Of a DNA stretch of 64,000 bases, positions 9,118-61,320 are shown piece after piece. Source of the stretch: Eledone cirrhosa (taxonomy: Eukaryota); assembly GCA_964016885.1 (NCBI GenBank), contig OZ024741.1, positions 188,604,001 to 188,668,000 of the forward strand, written 5' to 3'. Every line of letters begins with the position of its first letter. The first letter of the stretch is position 1. The notes below the pieces were generated by a model. It had not been told where the DNA came from, searched no databases, and saw nothing but the letters and a program-made list of their open reading frames with translations. The position numbers and the translations under genes were made by a program.

Positions 9118-9164
9118 ATTCTACAGGACTAGAACTGTTTCATTCTTTAGAAATCATCAGGAAT
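9118..9164 (-). ncRNA. Type I hammerhead ribozyme, isolated between (TA)n tracts
   Basis: Minus strand ATTC-CTGATGA-tTTCTaaAGAAt-GAAA-CAGttctagtcCTG-TA/GAAT: all three stems, the core and a GUA cleavage triplet. Confidence 0.7.
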
Positions 9165-9838
9165 ATATATATACATATATATATATATACATATATATAT
9201 ATATATATATATATATATATATATACATATACATATATACATATATATATATATACATATACATATATACATATACATATATACATATATATATATACAT
9301 ATATATATATACATATATATATATACATATATATATATACATATATATATATACATATATATATATACATATATATATATACATATATATATATACATAT
9401 ATATATATACATATATATATACATATATATATACATATATATATATACATATATATATATACATATATATATACATATATATATACATATATATATATAT
9501 ATATATATACATATATATATACATATATATATATATATATACATATATATATATATATATACATATATATATATATATATATATATACATATATATATAC
9601 ATATACATATATATATATATATATATACATATATATATATATATATATATATATACATATATATATATATATATATATATATATATATATATATATATAT
9701 ACATATATATATATATATATACATATATATATATATATATATATATATATACATATATATATATATATACATATATATATATATATATACATATATATAT
9801 ATATATATACATATATATATATATACATATATATATAT
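9165..9838. repeat. (TA)n / (TATATACA) compound microsatellite
   Basis: Direct inspection. Confidence 0.95.
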
Positions 9839-10410
9839 GTATAAAAAAGTGCAGGGCAATAAAAATAGACGGTAGCCACGGAGTAGGCAGACCCAGAAAA
9901 ACCTGGGACGACTTGATAAATTCCGACCTCACACACTTACACCTCTCCAAGACAATGTCACTGGACCGAGACCTTTGGCGCTACACAGTAATAGAGAAGA
10001 CCCGCCTTACCTAAGTACAAAGTGAAACCTACTACAGTCAGTAGGCACCTCTAACAAAATACACCCCCATCCCACTACCCTCACCTCATCCACACCACCC
10101 CTTTCAACGTAAAGTTATGTTGGTACCACAACATCCAGCCCGAAACAAATGAGGTCGTGTAGGTGTCACGACAAAAAAAACACACAGTCCACGCTGTAAT
10201 GTGGCCATGTAGGTAACACGGTAAAAACCTCCCAGTTCTACACTGTAAATGTGGTTGGTGTTAGGAAGGGCATCGAGCTGTAGAAAACCCGCCAGACAGT
10301 CCTATGCGAGCAAGACAACCACTCTTGCCTCAAGTGGGAAAACTCCCGTCCAAACCCATGCAAGCGTGGAATATGGATGTTAAACGATGATGATGATGAT
10401 GATGATGATG
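9838..10410 (+). mobile_element. RTE-clade LINE 3' end, inverted relative to the 7976-9043 copy
   Basis: Reverse-complement similarity to about 7976-8545; ends in (GAT)n. Confidence 0.88.
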
Positions 10411-10478
10411 ATATATATATATATAGTGACGAAACATAAGTCAATTGCATGAACTCATAATCCTTTATTCCTTTATTT

Positions 10479-10534
10479 ACTGCTATATATATTTCGATGA
10501 TAGCCATTGAGTGGCTATGACCTCATCAGGCAGT
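10479..10534 (-). ncRNA. Minimal type I hammerhead ribozyme in a ~165-bp module (10425-10591)
   Basis: ACTGC-CTGATGA-ggtcATAGCCActcaaTGGCTATcatc-GAAA-tatata-TA-GCAGT; second copy at 48033-48088. Confidence 0.8.
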
Positions 10535-10603
10535 TAGTCAGTTCTTATATATGCCAGCTCTGTGTTTATGGTGTTGATTGTAACAGAGCCTTATATATAT
10601 ATA

Positions 10604-57020: not shown

Positions 57021-57104
57021 TCTAGGCTAAACAATAACAACTAAAAGTTACATCTATATCATAAATGAGTCAAGACATATATCTTAGGTTCATTTAGGCC
57101 AAAG

Positions 57105-58960
57105 CTGCAACTGTTGCTGTTGTTGTTGTTGTTGTTGTTGTTGTTGTCGTCGTTGTTACTGTTGTTGTTGTTACTGTTGTTGTTGTTGTTGTTGTTGTTG
57201 TTGTTGTTGCTGCTGCTGCTGCTGCTGCTGCTGCAGTTGTTCCTGTTGATGCGACAGCTGCTGTTGCTACTATTGTTGCTGCTGCTGTTGCTATTGCTGT
57301 TGTTGCTATTGCTGTTGTTGCTATTGTTGTTGTTGCTGCTGTTGCTGCTGCAGTTGTTCCTGTTGTTGCTGTTGCTGTTGTTGTTGATGCTGCTGTGCTG
57401 GTGGTGTTGTTGCTGCTGTTGCTATTGCTGTTGCTGCTGCTGCAGTTGTTCCTGTTGATGCTACAGCTGCTGTTGCTACTATTGTTGCTGCTGCTGTTGC
57501 TATTGCTGTTGTTGCTATTGCTGTTGTTGCTGCTGCAGTTTTTCCTGTTGTTGCTGTTGCTGTTGATGCTGCTGTGCTGGTGGTGTTGTTGCTGCTGTTG
57601 CTATTGCTGTTGCTGCTGTTGCTGCTGCTGCTGCTGCTGCTGCTGTTGCTATTGCTGTTGCTGCTGCTGCTGCTGCTGCTGTTGCTATTGCTGTTGCTGC
57701 TGCTGCTGCTGCTGTTGCTATTGCTGTTGTTGCTGCTGCTGCTGCTGCTGCTGCTGCAGTTGTTCCTGTTGATGCTACAGCTGCTGTTGCTATTATTGTT
57801 GCTGCTATTGCTGCTGCTGTTGCTATTGCTGCTATTGCTTTTGCTGCTGCAGCTGCTGCTGCTGCTGCTGCTGCTGCTGCAGTTGTTCCTATTGATGTTA
57901 CAGCTGCTGTTGCTATTATTGTTGCTGCTGCTGTTGTTGCTGCTGTTGCTATTGCTGTTGTTGCTGTTGTTGCTACTGCAGCTGTTCCTGTTGTTGCTGT
58001 TGTTGCTACTGCAGCTGTTCCTGTTGTTGCTGTTGCTATTATTGTTGCTGCTGGTGTTGTTACTGCTGTTGCTATTGCTGCTGCTGCTGCTGCTGCAGTT
58101 GTTACTGTTGATGCTACAGCTGCTGTTGCTACTATTGTTGCTGCTGCTGTTGCTATTGCTGTTGTTGCTATTGCTGTTGCTGCTGCTGCTGCTGCAGTTG
58201 TTCCTGTTGATGCTACAGCTACTGTTGCTACTATTGTTGCTGCTGCTGTTGCTATTGCTGTTGTTGCTATTGCTGCTGCTGGTGCTGCTGCTGGTGCTGC
58301 TGCTGCAGTTGTTCCTGTTGATGCTACAGCTGCTGTTGCTACTATTGTTGCTGCTGCTGTTGCTATTGCTGTTGTTGCTATTGCTGTTGCTGCTGCTGCT
58401 GCTGCAGTTGTTCCTGTTGATGCTACAGCTACTGTTGCTACTATTGTTGCTGCTGCTGTTGCTATTGCTGTTGTTGCTATTGCTGCTGCTGGTGCTGCTG
58501 CTGCAGTTGTTCCTGTTGATGCTACAGCTGCTGTTGCTACTATTGTTGCTGCTGCTGTTGCTATTGCTGTTGTTGCTATTGCTATTGTTGCTATTGCTGT
58601 TGTTGCTGCTGTTGCTGCTGCAGTTGTTCCTGTTGTTGCTGTTGCTGCTGTTGTTGCTATTGCTGTTGCTGCTGCTGCAGTTGTTCCTATTGATGCTACA
58701 GCTGCTGTTGCTGCTGCTGCTGTTGCTGCTGCTGTGCTGCTGCAGTTGCTGCTGCTGTTGCTGCTGCTGTTGTTGCTGCTGTTGCTGCTGCTGCCGCTGT
58801 TGTTCCTATTGATGCTACAGCTGCTTTTGCTGCTGCTGCTGTTGCTGCTGCTGTTGCTGCTGCTGCTGTTGCTGCTGCTGTGCTGCTGCTGTTGCTGCTG
58901 CTGTGTTGCTGCTGCTGTGCTGCTGCTGTGCTGCTGCTGCTGCTGCTGTGCTGCTGCCAT
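57105..58960. repeat. Compound (TGC/TGT/TAT) trinucleotide repeat with higher-order units
   Basis: Recurring gcagttgttcctgttgatgctacagctgctgttgct anchor separated by variable triplet runs. Confidence 0.92.
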
Positions 58961-59829
58961 GCCAAACTAGAAGCAGGGTGTGGACATTCAAATTATTAGA
59001 CTTAAGCCGCCCTCCCCACCAAACTGCCAACAACTCTCTCAACCACAGATCAATAATCACCACTGTATGTGTAAATTGAATGCGTAGTGATCTTGTGTAT
59101 ATATCTTTCTGTTAGTGTTTGTGTCCATGTGTACGTATATGTGTATATGTGTATATGTGTATATGTGTATATGTGTATATGTATATATATATGTGTGTAT
59201 ATATATATATATGTGTGTATATATATATATATGTGTGTGTATATATATATATATATATATATATATATATATATATATATATATATATATATATATATAT
59301 ATATGTATATATATATATATATATATATATATATATATATGTATATATATATATATATATATATATATATATATATATATATACATATATATATGTATAT
59401 ATATGTATATATATATATATATATATATATATATATATATATATATATATAAATATATATATATGTGTGTGTGTGTGTGTGTGTGTGCGAGTGTGTTTGT
59501 GTGTGTGTGTGCATGTTAATGTGTATGTGTGTGTAGATGTTAGATGTATACATATATGTGTGTATTTATATCTATGTGTATTATGTGTATGTGTAACTAT
59601 ATATGTATATAAATGTTTTTATGTGTGTCTGTCTATGTGTGTGCATGTGTGTGTCTATGTAAGTGCTTGTGCGTGTCTGTGAGTGTATAAATACATATTT
59701 CTTTTTGCCACACACAAACACACACACACATACATATACGCACGCACAAACATATACACTCTTCTCTCCCTCTCTTCCTTTTCTTCCTTTTCCTTTACTC
59801 TTAATCTCAACTCTTAATCTCCACTCACA

Positions 59830-60242
59830 GCACACCACCACCGCCACCACCACCACCGCCACCACCACCACCGCCGCCATTGCCCCCACCACCACCTCTA
59901 CCACCACCTCTACCACCACCACCACCACCACCGCCATTGCCCCCACCACCACCTCTACCACCACCTCTACCACCACCACCACCAGCACCACCACCACCGC
60001 CATTGCCCCCACCACCACCGCCATTGCCCCCACCACCACCGCCATTGCCCTCACCACCACCTCTACCACCACCTCTACCACCACCACCACCACCACCACC
60101 ACCACCACCACCACCACCACCACCACCACTACCCCCCCCCACTGCCTCCACCACCACCTCTACCACTACCACCACCACTACCACCACTACTACCACCACC
60201 ATTGCCACTACCACCACCACCATTGCCACCACCACCACCATC
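59830..60242. repeat. (CCA)n-based repeat
   Basis: Direct inspection. Confidence 0.9.
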
Positions 60243-61204
60243 ACACGTCCACATCTCCCCATCCCCATGCCTCATCCATTTGTCTTACTTCATTCAGTTC
60301 TTTATGTTCAAACTCTCCATCCTACAACAATGTGTGATTTGATGAGATAGATTGCACCTATCTATGGGACCTATCTGTGATAGTAGCGGTTGAGGAACCA
60401 GTGTATGTTATTATAGTAGATATCTTTCTATCTCTATATCTGTCTATCTGTATATCTTTTCATCTGTCTGATATATTTTACTGTTTTTTTTTTGTTTTTT
60501 TTTTTTGTGTGTTGTTTGTGTTTTTTTAAAAAATCTATCTATCTACCTATCCTACTGTCATTCTATCTCTCTCTTTCTGTCTTTGCACACATATATATAT
60601 ATATATATATATATATATACACACACACAAACATATATATATATTTTATATATATATATATATATATATATATATATATATATATATATATATAGGAACG
60701 AGTAGGACCCCGACGGCTGAGCTCAAGCCGTTTCGACGGCTAATTCTGGACTCTACTACCCTAAGTATTGAGTACTTTGGTGCGTTATGGTCCATCTGGT
60801 TCCTTACCACATTTCCTTCATTATATATATATATATATATATATATATATATGTATATATGTATGTATATGCATACAGACACAAATCTATCTATCTGTTA
60901 ATCAATCTATCTATTTACCTGTTTTACTGTATCTATCCATATTCCTATACACACACATAAATACACTCACAAATATCATACATATTTACATACATACAAA
61001 TATATATATATATATATATATATATATATATATATATATATACATATATTTATATATACATATATATGTATATATATATATATATATATATATATATATA
61101 TATATATATATATATACATATATTTATATATACATATATATATATATATATATATATATATATATATATATATATATATATATATATATATATATATATA
61201 TGTA

Positions 61205-61320
61205 TATTTATTAAAATAACAGATTAAAGTTTAAGCAAAGAATCGCTGTTTCAGAAGATCCCGTTAAGGGTGAAAGCAGCGATTCTTTGCTTAAACTTTA
61301 ATCTGTTATTTTAATAAATA
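61205..61320. repeat. Perfect ~43-bp-arm hairpin whose loop is a variant hammerhead core
   Basis: Arms tatttattaaaataacag...aatcgctg / cagcgatt...aataaata; loop tttCAGAAGAtCCCgttaaGGGtGAAAg; related copies at about 27033 and 27257. Confidence 0.7.

Follow-up and report, generated by a model that had tools for sequence, protein, structure and literature searches.

Probable Penelope-like 3′ ends and non-coding tandem units at (TA)n tracts of Eledone cirrhosa carry predicted hammerhead ribozymes, among them a family in S-G-C order

What are the hammerhead ribozyme folds that lie along a repeat-rich 64-kb stretch of the 3.0-Gb genome of Eledone cirrhosa (contig OZ024741.1, positions 188,604,001 to 188,668,000; the window), and how did they come to sit beside (TA)n microsatellites? 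An earlier note on this DNA had described nine complete and seven partial or variant type I folds and read them as self-cleaving mini-elements mobilized by Penelope-like elements (PLEs). The modules are very probably the 5′-truncated 3′ ends of many PLE families, together with non-coding tandem units, placed at (TA)n and bearing predicted self-cutting hammerheads. Such a swarm is an extreme case of a known phenomenon, in which 5′ truncation of PLEs scatters about one hammerhead per 10 kb over a 3-Gb genome. Its most unusual member, absent from the earlier list, is a permuted fold at 30000-30100. On the sequence evidence an SGC-order family in an animal genome appears to be new, while the swarm is of a known kind at large scale; the permuted family would be more important than the swarm itself.

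Type I folds in the window and the genome

A strict type I descriptor matches the window seven times, against a mean of 0.12 (maximum 2) in 100 block shuffles. A relaxed descriptor, composed after the misses of the strict one were known, yields ten folds against a shuffle mean of 0.08 (maximum 1 in 100). These span 9117-9165(-), 10478-10535(-), 31578-31660(+), 31994-32053(-), 32058-32117(+), 44909-44968(+), 48032-48089(+), 48475-48554(-), 48864-48906(-) and 56330-56372(-). All ten copies contain CUGANGA, GAAA and UH in type I order with stems I-III, and they include the nine sites previously called complete, each recovered within 3 nt, plus one further fold. In a genome sample of 58 stretches of 10 kb (580 kb, round coordinates on large contigs), the relaxed descriptor finds 60 folds where ten shuffles gave 0-2. 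The expected motif excess over shuffled controls is thus present at both scales, and the window folds are genuine and above chance.

Fold density in the sample is 1.03 per 10 kb (bootstrap 0.64-1.48), equal to that of the window, and extrapolates to roughly 3x10^5 type I folds (1.9-4.4x10^5) in the genome, a count that excludes minimal, U3-A8, U4A and permuted forms. Inverted pairs and arrays are counted repeatedly among the 60, which collapse to 40 events. The 70 folds of sample and window fall into 22 sequence clusters, in keeping with the diversity claimed earlier, except that the sites at 10529 and 48038 are members of one family (M2). Stem III is palindromic in 55 of the 60 sample folds without the descriptor demanding it. 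The ten window folds keep a true, mostly palindromic stem III, so that they differ from the minimal hammerheads which the earlier note gave as established for PLEs and metazoan retrozymes. The G10.1-C11.1 pair occurs in four of the ten window copies; in the sample this position is G-C in 17 of 60, A-U in 24 and U.U in 10.

Each of the seven partial or variant sites can be explained, several of them as core variants, decayed copies or 3′-half fragments. Sites 27257 and 61245 have a CAGAAGA core, which is a family-wide trait, and the core at 27033 is broken. Minimal folds lie at 29755, in decayed form, and at 30776, with a stem I of 2 bp; 30955 and 60710 retain just the 3′ half, severed within stem II. 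Rfam places no hammerhead among the 150 matches listed of 226 in the window. On six loci it gives one sub-threshold Hammerhead_1 match (24.6 bits, cut-off 34) and nothing at the SGC motif.

Conservation and variation of the type I core

Genome searches returned 119 to 4158 first-look candidates per family, figures that are lower bounds and not copy numbers. Rows for covariation were gathered by sequence similarity, those of family M1 from nested copies. Core positions are 0.8-1.0 conserved per family, and two-sided stem changes separate subfamilies of M2, M5, M6, M7 and M9, so the covariation among genomic copies anticipated by the earlier note, with stems differing between families, is found. 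In the 75 rows of M7, one stem II pair is G-C in 42 and A-U in 25, and another is U-A in 53 and C-G in 17. Rows of M8 and M10 are too uniform for covariation, and the outer stem I of M1 is blurred by truncation.

Several departures from the consensus run through whole families. Positions 10.1-11.1 are mismatched as U.U in M1 (37/39) and M8 (30/31) and as C.A in M5 (25/28). M3 bears the CAGAAGA (U4A) core, with CTGAAGA in a single copy among the 20 commonest contexts listed. M4 keeps its 3-8 pair as U3-A8 in 34 of 34 rows; a C3-G8 core was considered for it, and a pattern with that core matched nothing. A missing or vestigial stem III, a trait of minimal forms, is confined to M11 and M12, and an extra base after A9 to M9. 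M2 and M7 have a C.C mismatch at the fourth stem II position (33/33 and 70/75) and (TA)4 as stem III. A further family (loci L127, L346 and L433) combines a U3-A8 core with a clean 4-bp stem II and lies near TA. The swarm thereby supplies many natural core variants, some of which may already be listed among the PLE hammerhead variants reportedly treated by Luense et al. in 2017.

Insertion anatomy at (TA)n

TA runs lie within 200 nt 3′ of 40 of the 60 sample folds (31 of 40 events), compared with 14.6% of positions, and within 200 nt 5′ of just 11, so the association is polar. The contact with TA reported for every module is mainly a 3′ feature, and the module at 29755 ends in (CA)n. The copy at 44908 adjoins just (TA)4 at its 3′ end, although an 11-nt TA run at 39399 borders the left arm that was displaced from it. 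A SINE (short interspersed nuclear element) family likewise starts directly at TA runs (window 10605 and 49016).

Ends were mapped in eight families (M2, M3, M4, M5, M7, M8, M9 and M10), using the 30 best copies from every one. All eight have a fixed 3′ end that meets TA either directly or through a shared tail and then TA. The numbers of copies with the short end at TA and with the tail are 27 and 0 for M2, 8 and 22 for M3, 27 and 2 for M4, 17 and 12 for M5, 19 and 6 for M7, 22 and 7 for M8, 17 and 11 for M9, and 11 and 18 for M10. A shared optional tail of 60-122 nt occurs in M4, M5, M7, M9 and M10. The 5′ ends are variable and frequently carry an inverted copy, which is the signature of PLEs with an endonuclease (EN+). 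The same anatomy, with (TA)n as target, is described for EN+ PLEs in Craig 2021 (PMC8557442), which also lists an octopus Hydra element with a hammerhead and a (TA)n target. The literature already describes PLE hammerheads, octopus Hydra elements at (TA)n and the derivation of retrozymes from PLEs.

The insertion ends sit 50-260 nt 3′ of the predicted cut, and 5′ breakpoints show no excess at the predicted cleavage site (11 of 233, where 15.9 are expected). Inserted copies therefore appear to derive from uncleaved RNA. An anole element was likewise copied from uncleaved RNA in vitro, with two internal start sites of its reverse transcriptase (RT) setting the extent of the tail (PMC11167929). 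A template TA word of 3-7 nt stands at the short end in six of seven families (combined p 0.006), and the phase of the TA run matches it.

Parents of the families

The 13 families comprise five truncated PLE 3′ ends (four of Hydra type and one of Neptune or Nematis type), three closed units and five that are untraced. GIY-YIG searches gave 10,595 first-look candidates genome-wide. M10 lies 1.7-1.9 kb downstream of an RT-EN frame in loci L141-143, and M7 lies 1.3 kb downstream of one in L355, with L357 as a further parent locus. M4 is found 1.23-1.25 kb downstream of an EN end in 4 of 25 loci, M2 downstream of an EN end in L363 only, and M9 about 400 nt downstream of GIY-YIG in L351-353. Mapping of modules to PLE ends, as the earlier note proposed, thus succeeds for five families that are colinear with RT or GIY-YIG and stops short of intact parents.

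The M10 parents L141-143 show Hydra motifs (DKT, a CxCX5C linker, CxxC, and CxH around E and N), with no CxxC within GIY-YIG, though two spaced Cys are there, and KWR at the RWK position in L141. The M7 parent L355 has the linker, CxxC and CxH, with DKT off-frame; M2 and M4 are assigned to the Hydra type from EN fragments only. The M9 parent L351 has a CX2-5CxxC-type linker and two Cys inside a C-terminal GIY-YIG, features that point to Neptune or Nematis, two clades not told apart here. Two loci, L145:3309-6122(-) and L147:4275-7562(+), have uninterrupted frames of 938 and 1096 aa, respectively, that encode RT, a CX4CxxC linker and GIY-YIG. They are possibly intact Neptune-type elements, not linked to the window families.

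M5, M8 and M14 are tandem units without an open reading frame (ORF), each with one hammerhead per unit. M8 forms a 23-unit array of 633-bp units, M5 closes into a 523-nt non-coding unit, and M14 occurs in tandem units of 495 bp and 631-633 bp whose longest stop-free stretch is 106-139 aa. The 3′ ends of their dispersed copies are fixed at a distance from the cut site, as would be expected if uncleaved RNA had been copied, and these units are likely to borrow the enzymes of others. M3 is found both free and inside a Helitron-like element.

Two claims about the modules as entities do not survive these results. The size of 65-430 bp taken as that of the element is the length of the remnant after 5′ truncation, and there is no separate class of mini-elements when five families extend into RT or GIY-YIG and three close into units of 495-633 nt. 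The broader picture of a diverse, Penelope-mobilized population that favours TA tracts is borne out by the parents, the TA enrichment and the clusters.

Origin of the modules and rival explanations

In the proposed mechanism, a GIY-YIG endonuclease would nick a TA run and RT would start, on uncleaved RNA, at one of two internal sites 3′ of the ribozyme, priming being probably helped by the 3-7 nt TA word of the template. RT would usually drop off or invert early, and the closeness of the hammerhead to the point where copying begins would explain its over-representation. If the ribozyme acts at all, it would do so in tandem parent transcripts, releasing unit-length RNAs. A palindromic stem III suits dimers, and most single copies are likely inert.

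Several points weigh against this account. Six of the ten window folds are without the standard 10.1-11.1 pair (U.U in three, A.A in two, C.A in one), and all ten, taken as monomers, have a minimum-energy structure that is 1.3-5.8 kcal/mol more stable than the hammerhead. None of the traced parents has an unbroken ORF; the parent link of M2 is one locus and spans a 2.6-kb insertion; genome searches found no parent for M1, M3, M6, M11 and M12; and no enzyme mobilizing M5, M8 and M14 was identified. The Hydra placement uses motifs and by-eye likeness to a published alignment; one protein resembles Hydra-1_Obim by eye. The short end of M7 has no TA word, and priming in the anole element proceeds without homology (PMC11167929). 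Pre-existing TA runs were not demonstrated by empty-site comparison, where 9 of 62 testable copies have a candidate and nearly all of these are flanked by other TA-associated repeats. Copies were taken as the best BLAST matches, a choice biased to young, long ones.

Would the folds still cut? They could instead persist without cutting, as structural signals for protein binding or RT positioning or as relics of master elements. The family-wide mismatches of M1, M8 and M5, the CAGAAGA core of M3 and the lack of a breakpoint signal at the cut all agree with such a state, as does the low in vitro activity recorded for metazoan PLE hammerheads (PMC4209133). Catalytic positions nevertheless stay constant over 22 clusters while the stems covary, and the U3-A8 pair held throughout M4 is a covariation relevant to the catalytic fold. 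Loss of cutting is unlikely on this evidence, though it deserves to be taken seriously. A chance origin, or one as by-products of palindromes in AT-rich DNA, can be practically dismissed: a U3-A8 descriptor alone does no better than shuffles (9 against 5-8), whereas the canonical core far exceeds them in window and sample alike, and the multi-copy families with compensatory changes refute this idea for that core.

The TA runs themselves might be made or lengthened by the elements, through telomerase-like reiterative copying of the template TA word, and not serve as targets alone. Such copying would account for the 3′-polar association and for the run phase that follows the template word; PMC8557442 places PLE RT as sister to telomerase, and TA runs make up ~4.5% of 180 kb of sampled DNA. 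Many copies, however, are flanked by TA at either end, TA runs also adjoin SINEs and other repeats, and (TA)n is read as a target by Craig 2021 (PMC8557442), so that this process is doubtful. It is improbable that the modules are distinct, self-contained mini-elements retained for cutting host transcripts or forming circles, as the earlier note had it. Short modules do predominate, and a recurrent 127-bp M4 composite may now move independently; but 5′ length varies continuously into longer parents, a single truncated copy has one cut site and can form no circle, inverted arms would pair across the fold, and the window is no denser than the genome average. Truncated PLE 3′ ends and non-coding tandem units at (TA)n are thus the reading retained here.

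A predicted hammerhead in S-G-C order

The CUGAUGA core at 30089 has its cut site and GAAA upstream, giving the non-circular block order S-G-C. In this window copy of M14, the S block consists of a stem III strand with UA (30040-30045), a predicted cut after 30045 and a stem I strand (30046-30050); GAAA (30062-30065) is the G block and CUGAUGA (30089-30095) the C block. Extra helices pair 30000-03 with 30097-100, 30005-10 with 30019-24, 30026-29 with 30057-60 and 30031-36 with 30076-81. Readings as type II or III were rejected because the cut site lies 5′ of GAAA and no pairing joins the strand that precedes GAAA to the one that follows CUGANGA; a canonical order would require three tandem units.

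The copy belongs to the 495-bp tandem unit, 99% identical among best matches, with the 631-633 bp unit as its sister. There are at least five SGC subfamilies (loci L412-L433), and five queries gave 1444-2080 candidates each. The 580-kb sample holds two SGC matches and the reversed control none. A descriptor scan of ~2 Mb found 28 SGC matches against 0 in shuffles (run on a quarter of the data and scaled); GCS and CSG gave 13 and 21, against about 4 and 12, and none was convincing.

An alignment of 33 rows (32 distinct, ~six lineages) has 93.5% of its cells paired and two-sided change in 21 of 31 pairs, figures to be read with the structure inferred from these same rows, most of which were picked by a parser that requires pairing, with 7 of 18 fetched loci unparsed and excluded. 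The covariation score is 0.477, against 0.213 in shuffles (none of 500 reached it) and no more than 0.121 under sliding, and the count of further pair types is not above shuffles (374/500). U16.1, G12, A14, A15.1, C3, U4, A6, G8 and A9 are invariant in the 33 rows. Stem I is 98.8% paired with two-sided change in all five pairs, and stem III is 99.4% paired with such change in two of five. In place of a regular stem II there is one pair, which is standard in 22 of 32 rows; the positions next to it pair with strands further upstream and close a four-way junction. M14, having just this one pair as stem II, is therefore an SGC-order variant and not the published type-SGC motif.

A probable link to Naiad elements

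Non-circular hammerheads were described in 2023 from metatranscriptomes (PMC10085705) and Naiads in 2021 (PMC8557442). In the latter, Naiads are reported without a canonical hammerhead, and a core or half-core flag is given to 18 entries, including one Hydra element. By-eye inspection covered the final 500-600 nt of 16 Naiad consensus records, each identified from the following header and row order; seven parse as permuted hammerheads (four SGC, three CSG) and nine are unparsed. The SGC-parsing records precede Naiad_Ovul, Naiad_Omin, Naiad_Adux and Naiad-4_Chem (two octopuses, a squid and a hydrozoan), and the two octopus records show, by eye, all M14 helices in the same order, with U.C at 10.1-11.1. 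The CSG-parsing records, in the nematode section before Naiad-2_Nbra, Naiad-3_Nbra and Naiad_Hpol, have full stems I and II of 5-6 bp. SGC and CSG share one common cyclic order.

No Naiad-type ORF (N-terminal GIY-YIG, CxC and C-terminal RT) was found near the SGC motif in 14 contexts and four stretches, and two Naiad motif patterns had no match. ORFs near L151, L154 and L156 were considered as SGC parents and belong to other families. A search for permuted hammerheads in Naiads or animals found no report, in literature short of most subscription papers, and ribozymes go unmentioned in the available part of a 2026 Octopus vulgaris repeat paper (PMC13282606).

The non-circularly permuted fold of M14 and its relatives is likely of the Naiad type. 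Going one step further, we lean toward the view that Naiads carry hammerheads in non-circular order (SGC in cephalopods and a hydrozoan, CSG in nematodes) and that a competent SGC ribozyme has spread here in thousands of copies, some in young 495-bp units. If so, non-circularly permuted ribozymes exist in animal DNA in a topology overlooked by standard hammerhead descriptors. Should the 100-nt motif cleave, it would account for the missing Naiad hammerheads and the unexplained core and half-core flags, and would offer a new pseudoknotted fold for structural work.

Module map of the window

The window contains 131 TA runs, a 29-bp satellite (124 copies at 3092-6688), 586 degenerate TGC triplets (57208-58957), a LINE (long interspersed nuclear element) remnant at about 33-38 kb and Ty3-type remnants, some of them near 21-27 kb and 50-55 kb; no host exon is identifiable in its 64 kb. 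Its first modules are M1 (9094-9165, -), a 3′ end with a type I fold and U.U at 10.1-11.1 that is truncated within stem I and has no traced parent, and M2 (10426-10591, -), a Hydra-type 3′ end with a type I fold, TA on both sides and the single-locus EN link of L363. M3 fragments (27000-27518, +), with the broken core at 27033 and a CAGAAGA core at 27255-27305, lie in 171-bp internal repeats of the element that we take to be Helitron-like from the hallmarks of Helitrons (also loci L281-L310). Its 3′ hairpin is at 27491 and its CTAG end at 27518; among such loci, 12 of 30 have the 3′ hairpin with CTAG and 8 of 30 a 5′ TC start.

A dense group follows. M12 (29751-29900, +) is a decayed minimal copy whose relatives retain the GAAA half, and M14 (29885-30146, +) is a 5′-truncated copy of the 495-bp non-coding unit, with its S-G-C hammerhead on the same strand (30000-30100, +). 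M11 (30700-30899, +) is a 3′ end with a minimal hammerhead at 30780-30811, a 2-bp stem I and an untraced parent. M4 (30938-31086, -), of Hydra-type parentage, is an inverted pair with only the GAAA and stem III half. M5 (31169-31710, +) joins an inverted, tail-bearing copy to a direct copy of the 523-nt unit, with C.A at 10.1-11.1. A tail-only M9 fragment without ribozyme (31766-31907, +) is followed by M6 (31963-32296, both strands), an inverted pair of untraced parentage with one fold per strand and a tail on the plus arm.

M7 (44700-45010, +) is an inverted pair with a Hydra-type 3′ end. A Ty3-type long terminal repeat (LTR) element at 39532-44700 splits its inverted arm and separates it from the displaced part (39410-39531, -), which holds the end and tail and abuts TA; the M7 insertion is therefore the older. 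The second copy of M2 (47972-48131, +) has TA on both sides. M8 (48222-48652, -) is a truncated copy of a 626-633-nt tandem unit with U.U at 10.1-11.1 and an 8-bp palindromic stem III. M9 (48712-48965, -) is the 3′ end of a Neptune- or Nematis-type element with CX4CxxC linker and C-terminal GIY-YIG, and another of its tail-only fragments lies at 56149-56239 (+). M10 (56284-56425, -) is a Hydra-type 3′ end cut by a SINE on its 5′ side. The M4 copy at 60695-60821 (-) joins an inverted tail to the last ~60 nt, the 3′ half of the fold; this 127-bp composite recurs with a near-identical junction in the 30 best matches (L252-L280) and may be a junction hot spot or a new non-autonomous unit. The free M3 copy (61204-61405, +) comprises an inverted arm, a CAGAAGA fold at 61247-61297 and a tail, with TA on both sides. 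Inverted arms occur at 30938, 31291, 31963, 44700 and 61204; if transcribed, such arms would give long RNA hairpins, which at this density might supply A-to-I editing with many substrates.

Comparison with known systems

Metazoan PLE pseudo-LTR hammerheads (PMC4209133) resemble the swarm in being type I, in forming many families per genome, mostly as single motifs from truncated elements, and in their opposite-strand pairs, palindromic stem III and U3-A8 variant. Most folds here differ in keeping a true stem III, often without G10.1-C11.1, and their estimated number, about 3x10^5, compares with about 9,000 in Xenopus (PMC4209133). The Hydra clade, including Hydra-1_Obim, shares with M2, M4, M7 and M10 its motifs, a hammerhead near the 3′ end, (TA)n, a tail and an inverted 5′ copy. 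Here, in contrast, the 3′ untranslated regions measure 1.2-1.9 kb, tails are 80-110 nt (30-40 in published elements), there are at least four families, and one has a U3-A8 core with a 54-nt stem II region.

Non-LTR retrozymes (PMC7229834; 10.64898/2026.07.22.740005) are, like M5, M8 and M14, ORF-less tandem units with one hammerhead each, and copy numbers in axolotl reach up to 120,000 (PMC7229834). The units here differ in being 495-633 nt long and in having dispersed copies with the PLE insertion signature; the swarm connects retrozyme units with that signature.

M14 agrees with the type-SGC hammerhead (PMC10085705) in block order, in all core nucleotides, in covarying stems I and III and in a short linker from the stem I strand to the strand before GAAA. 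Type-SGC was published from metatranscriptomes and not from genomes of known organisms, whereas M14 is genomic, multi-copy and animal, with a one-pair stem II whose neighbours pair upstream and with two further helices. The pseudoknot hammerhead (PMC11300833) likewise has stem II cut to the 10.1-11.1 pair while the rest pairs elsewhere; its loop II, however, pairs with an added stem-loop on helix I, and strand connectivity differs in M14. Naiad elements (PMC8557442) resemble M14 in the S-G-C order at some of their 3′ ends and in their (TA)n target.

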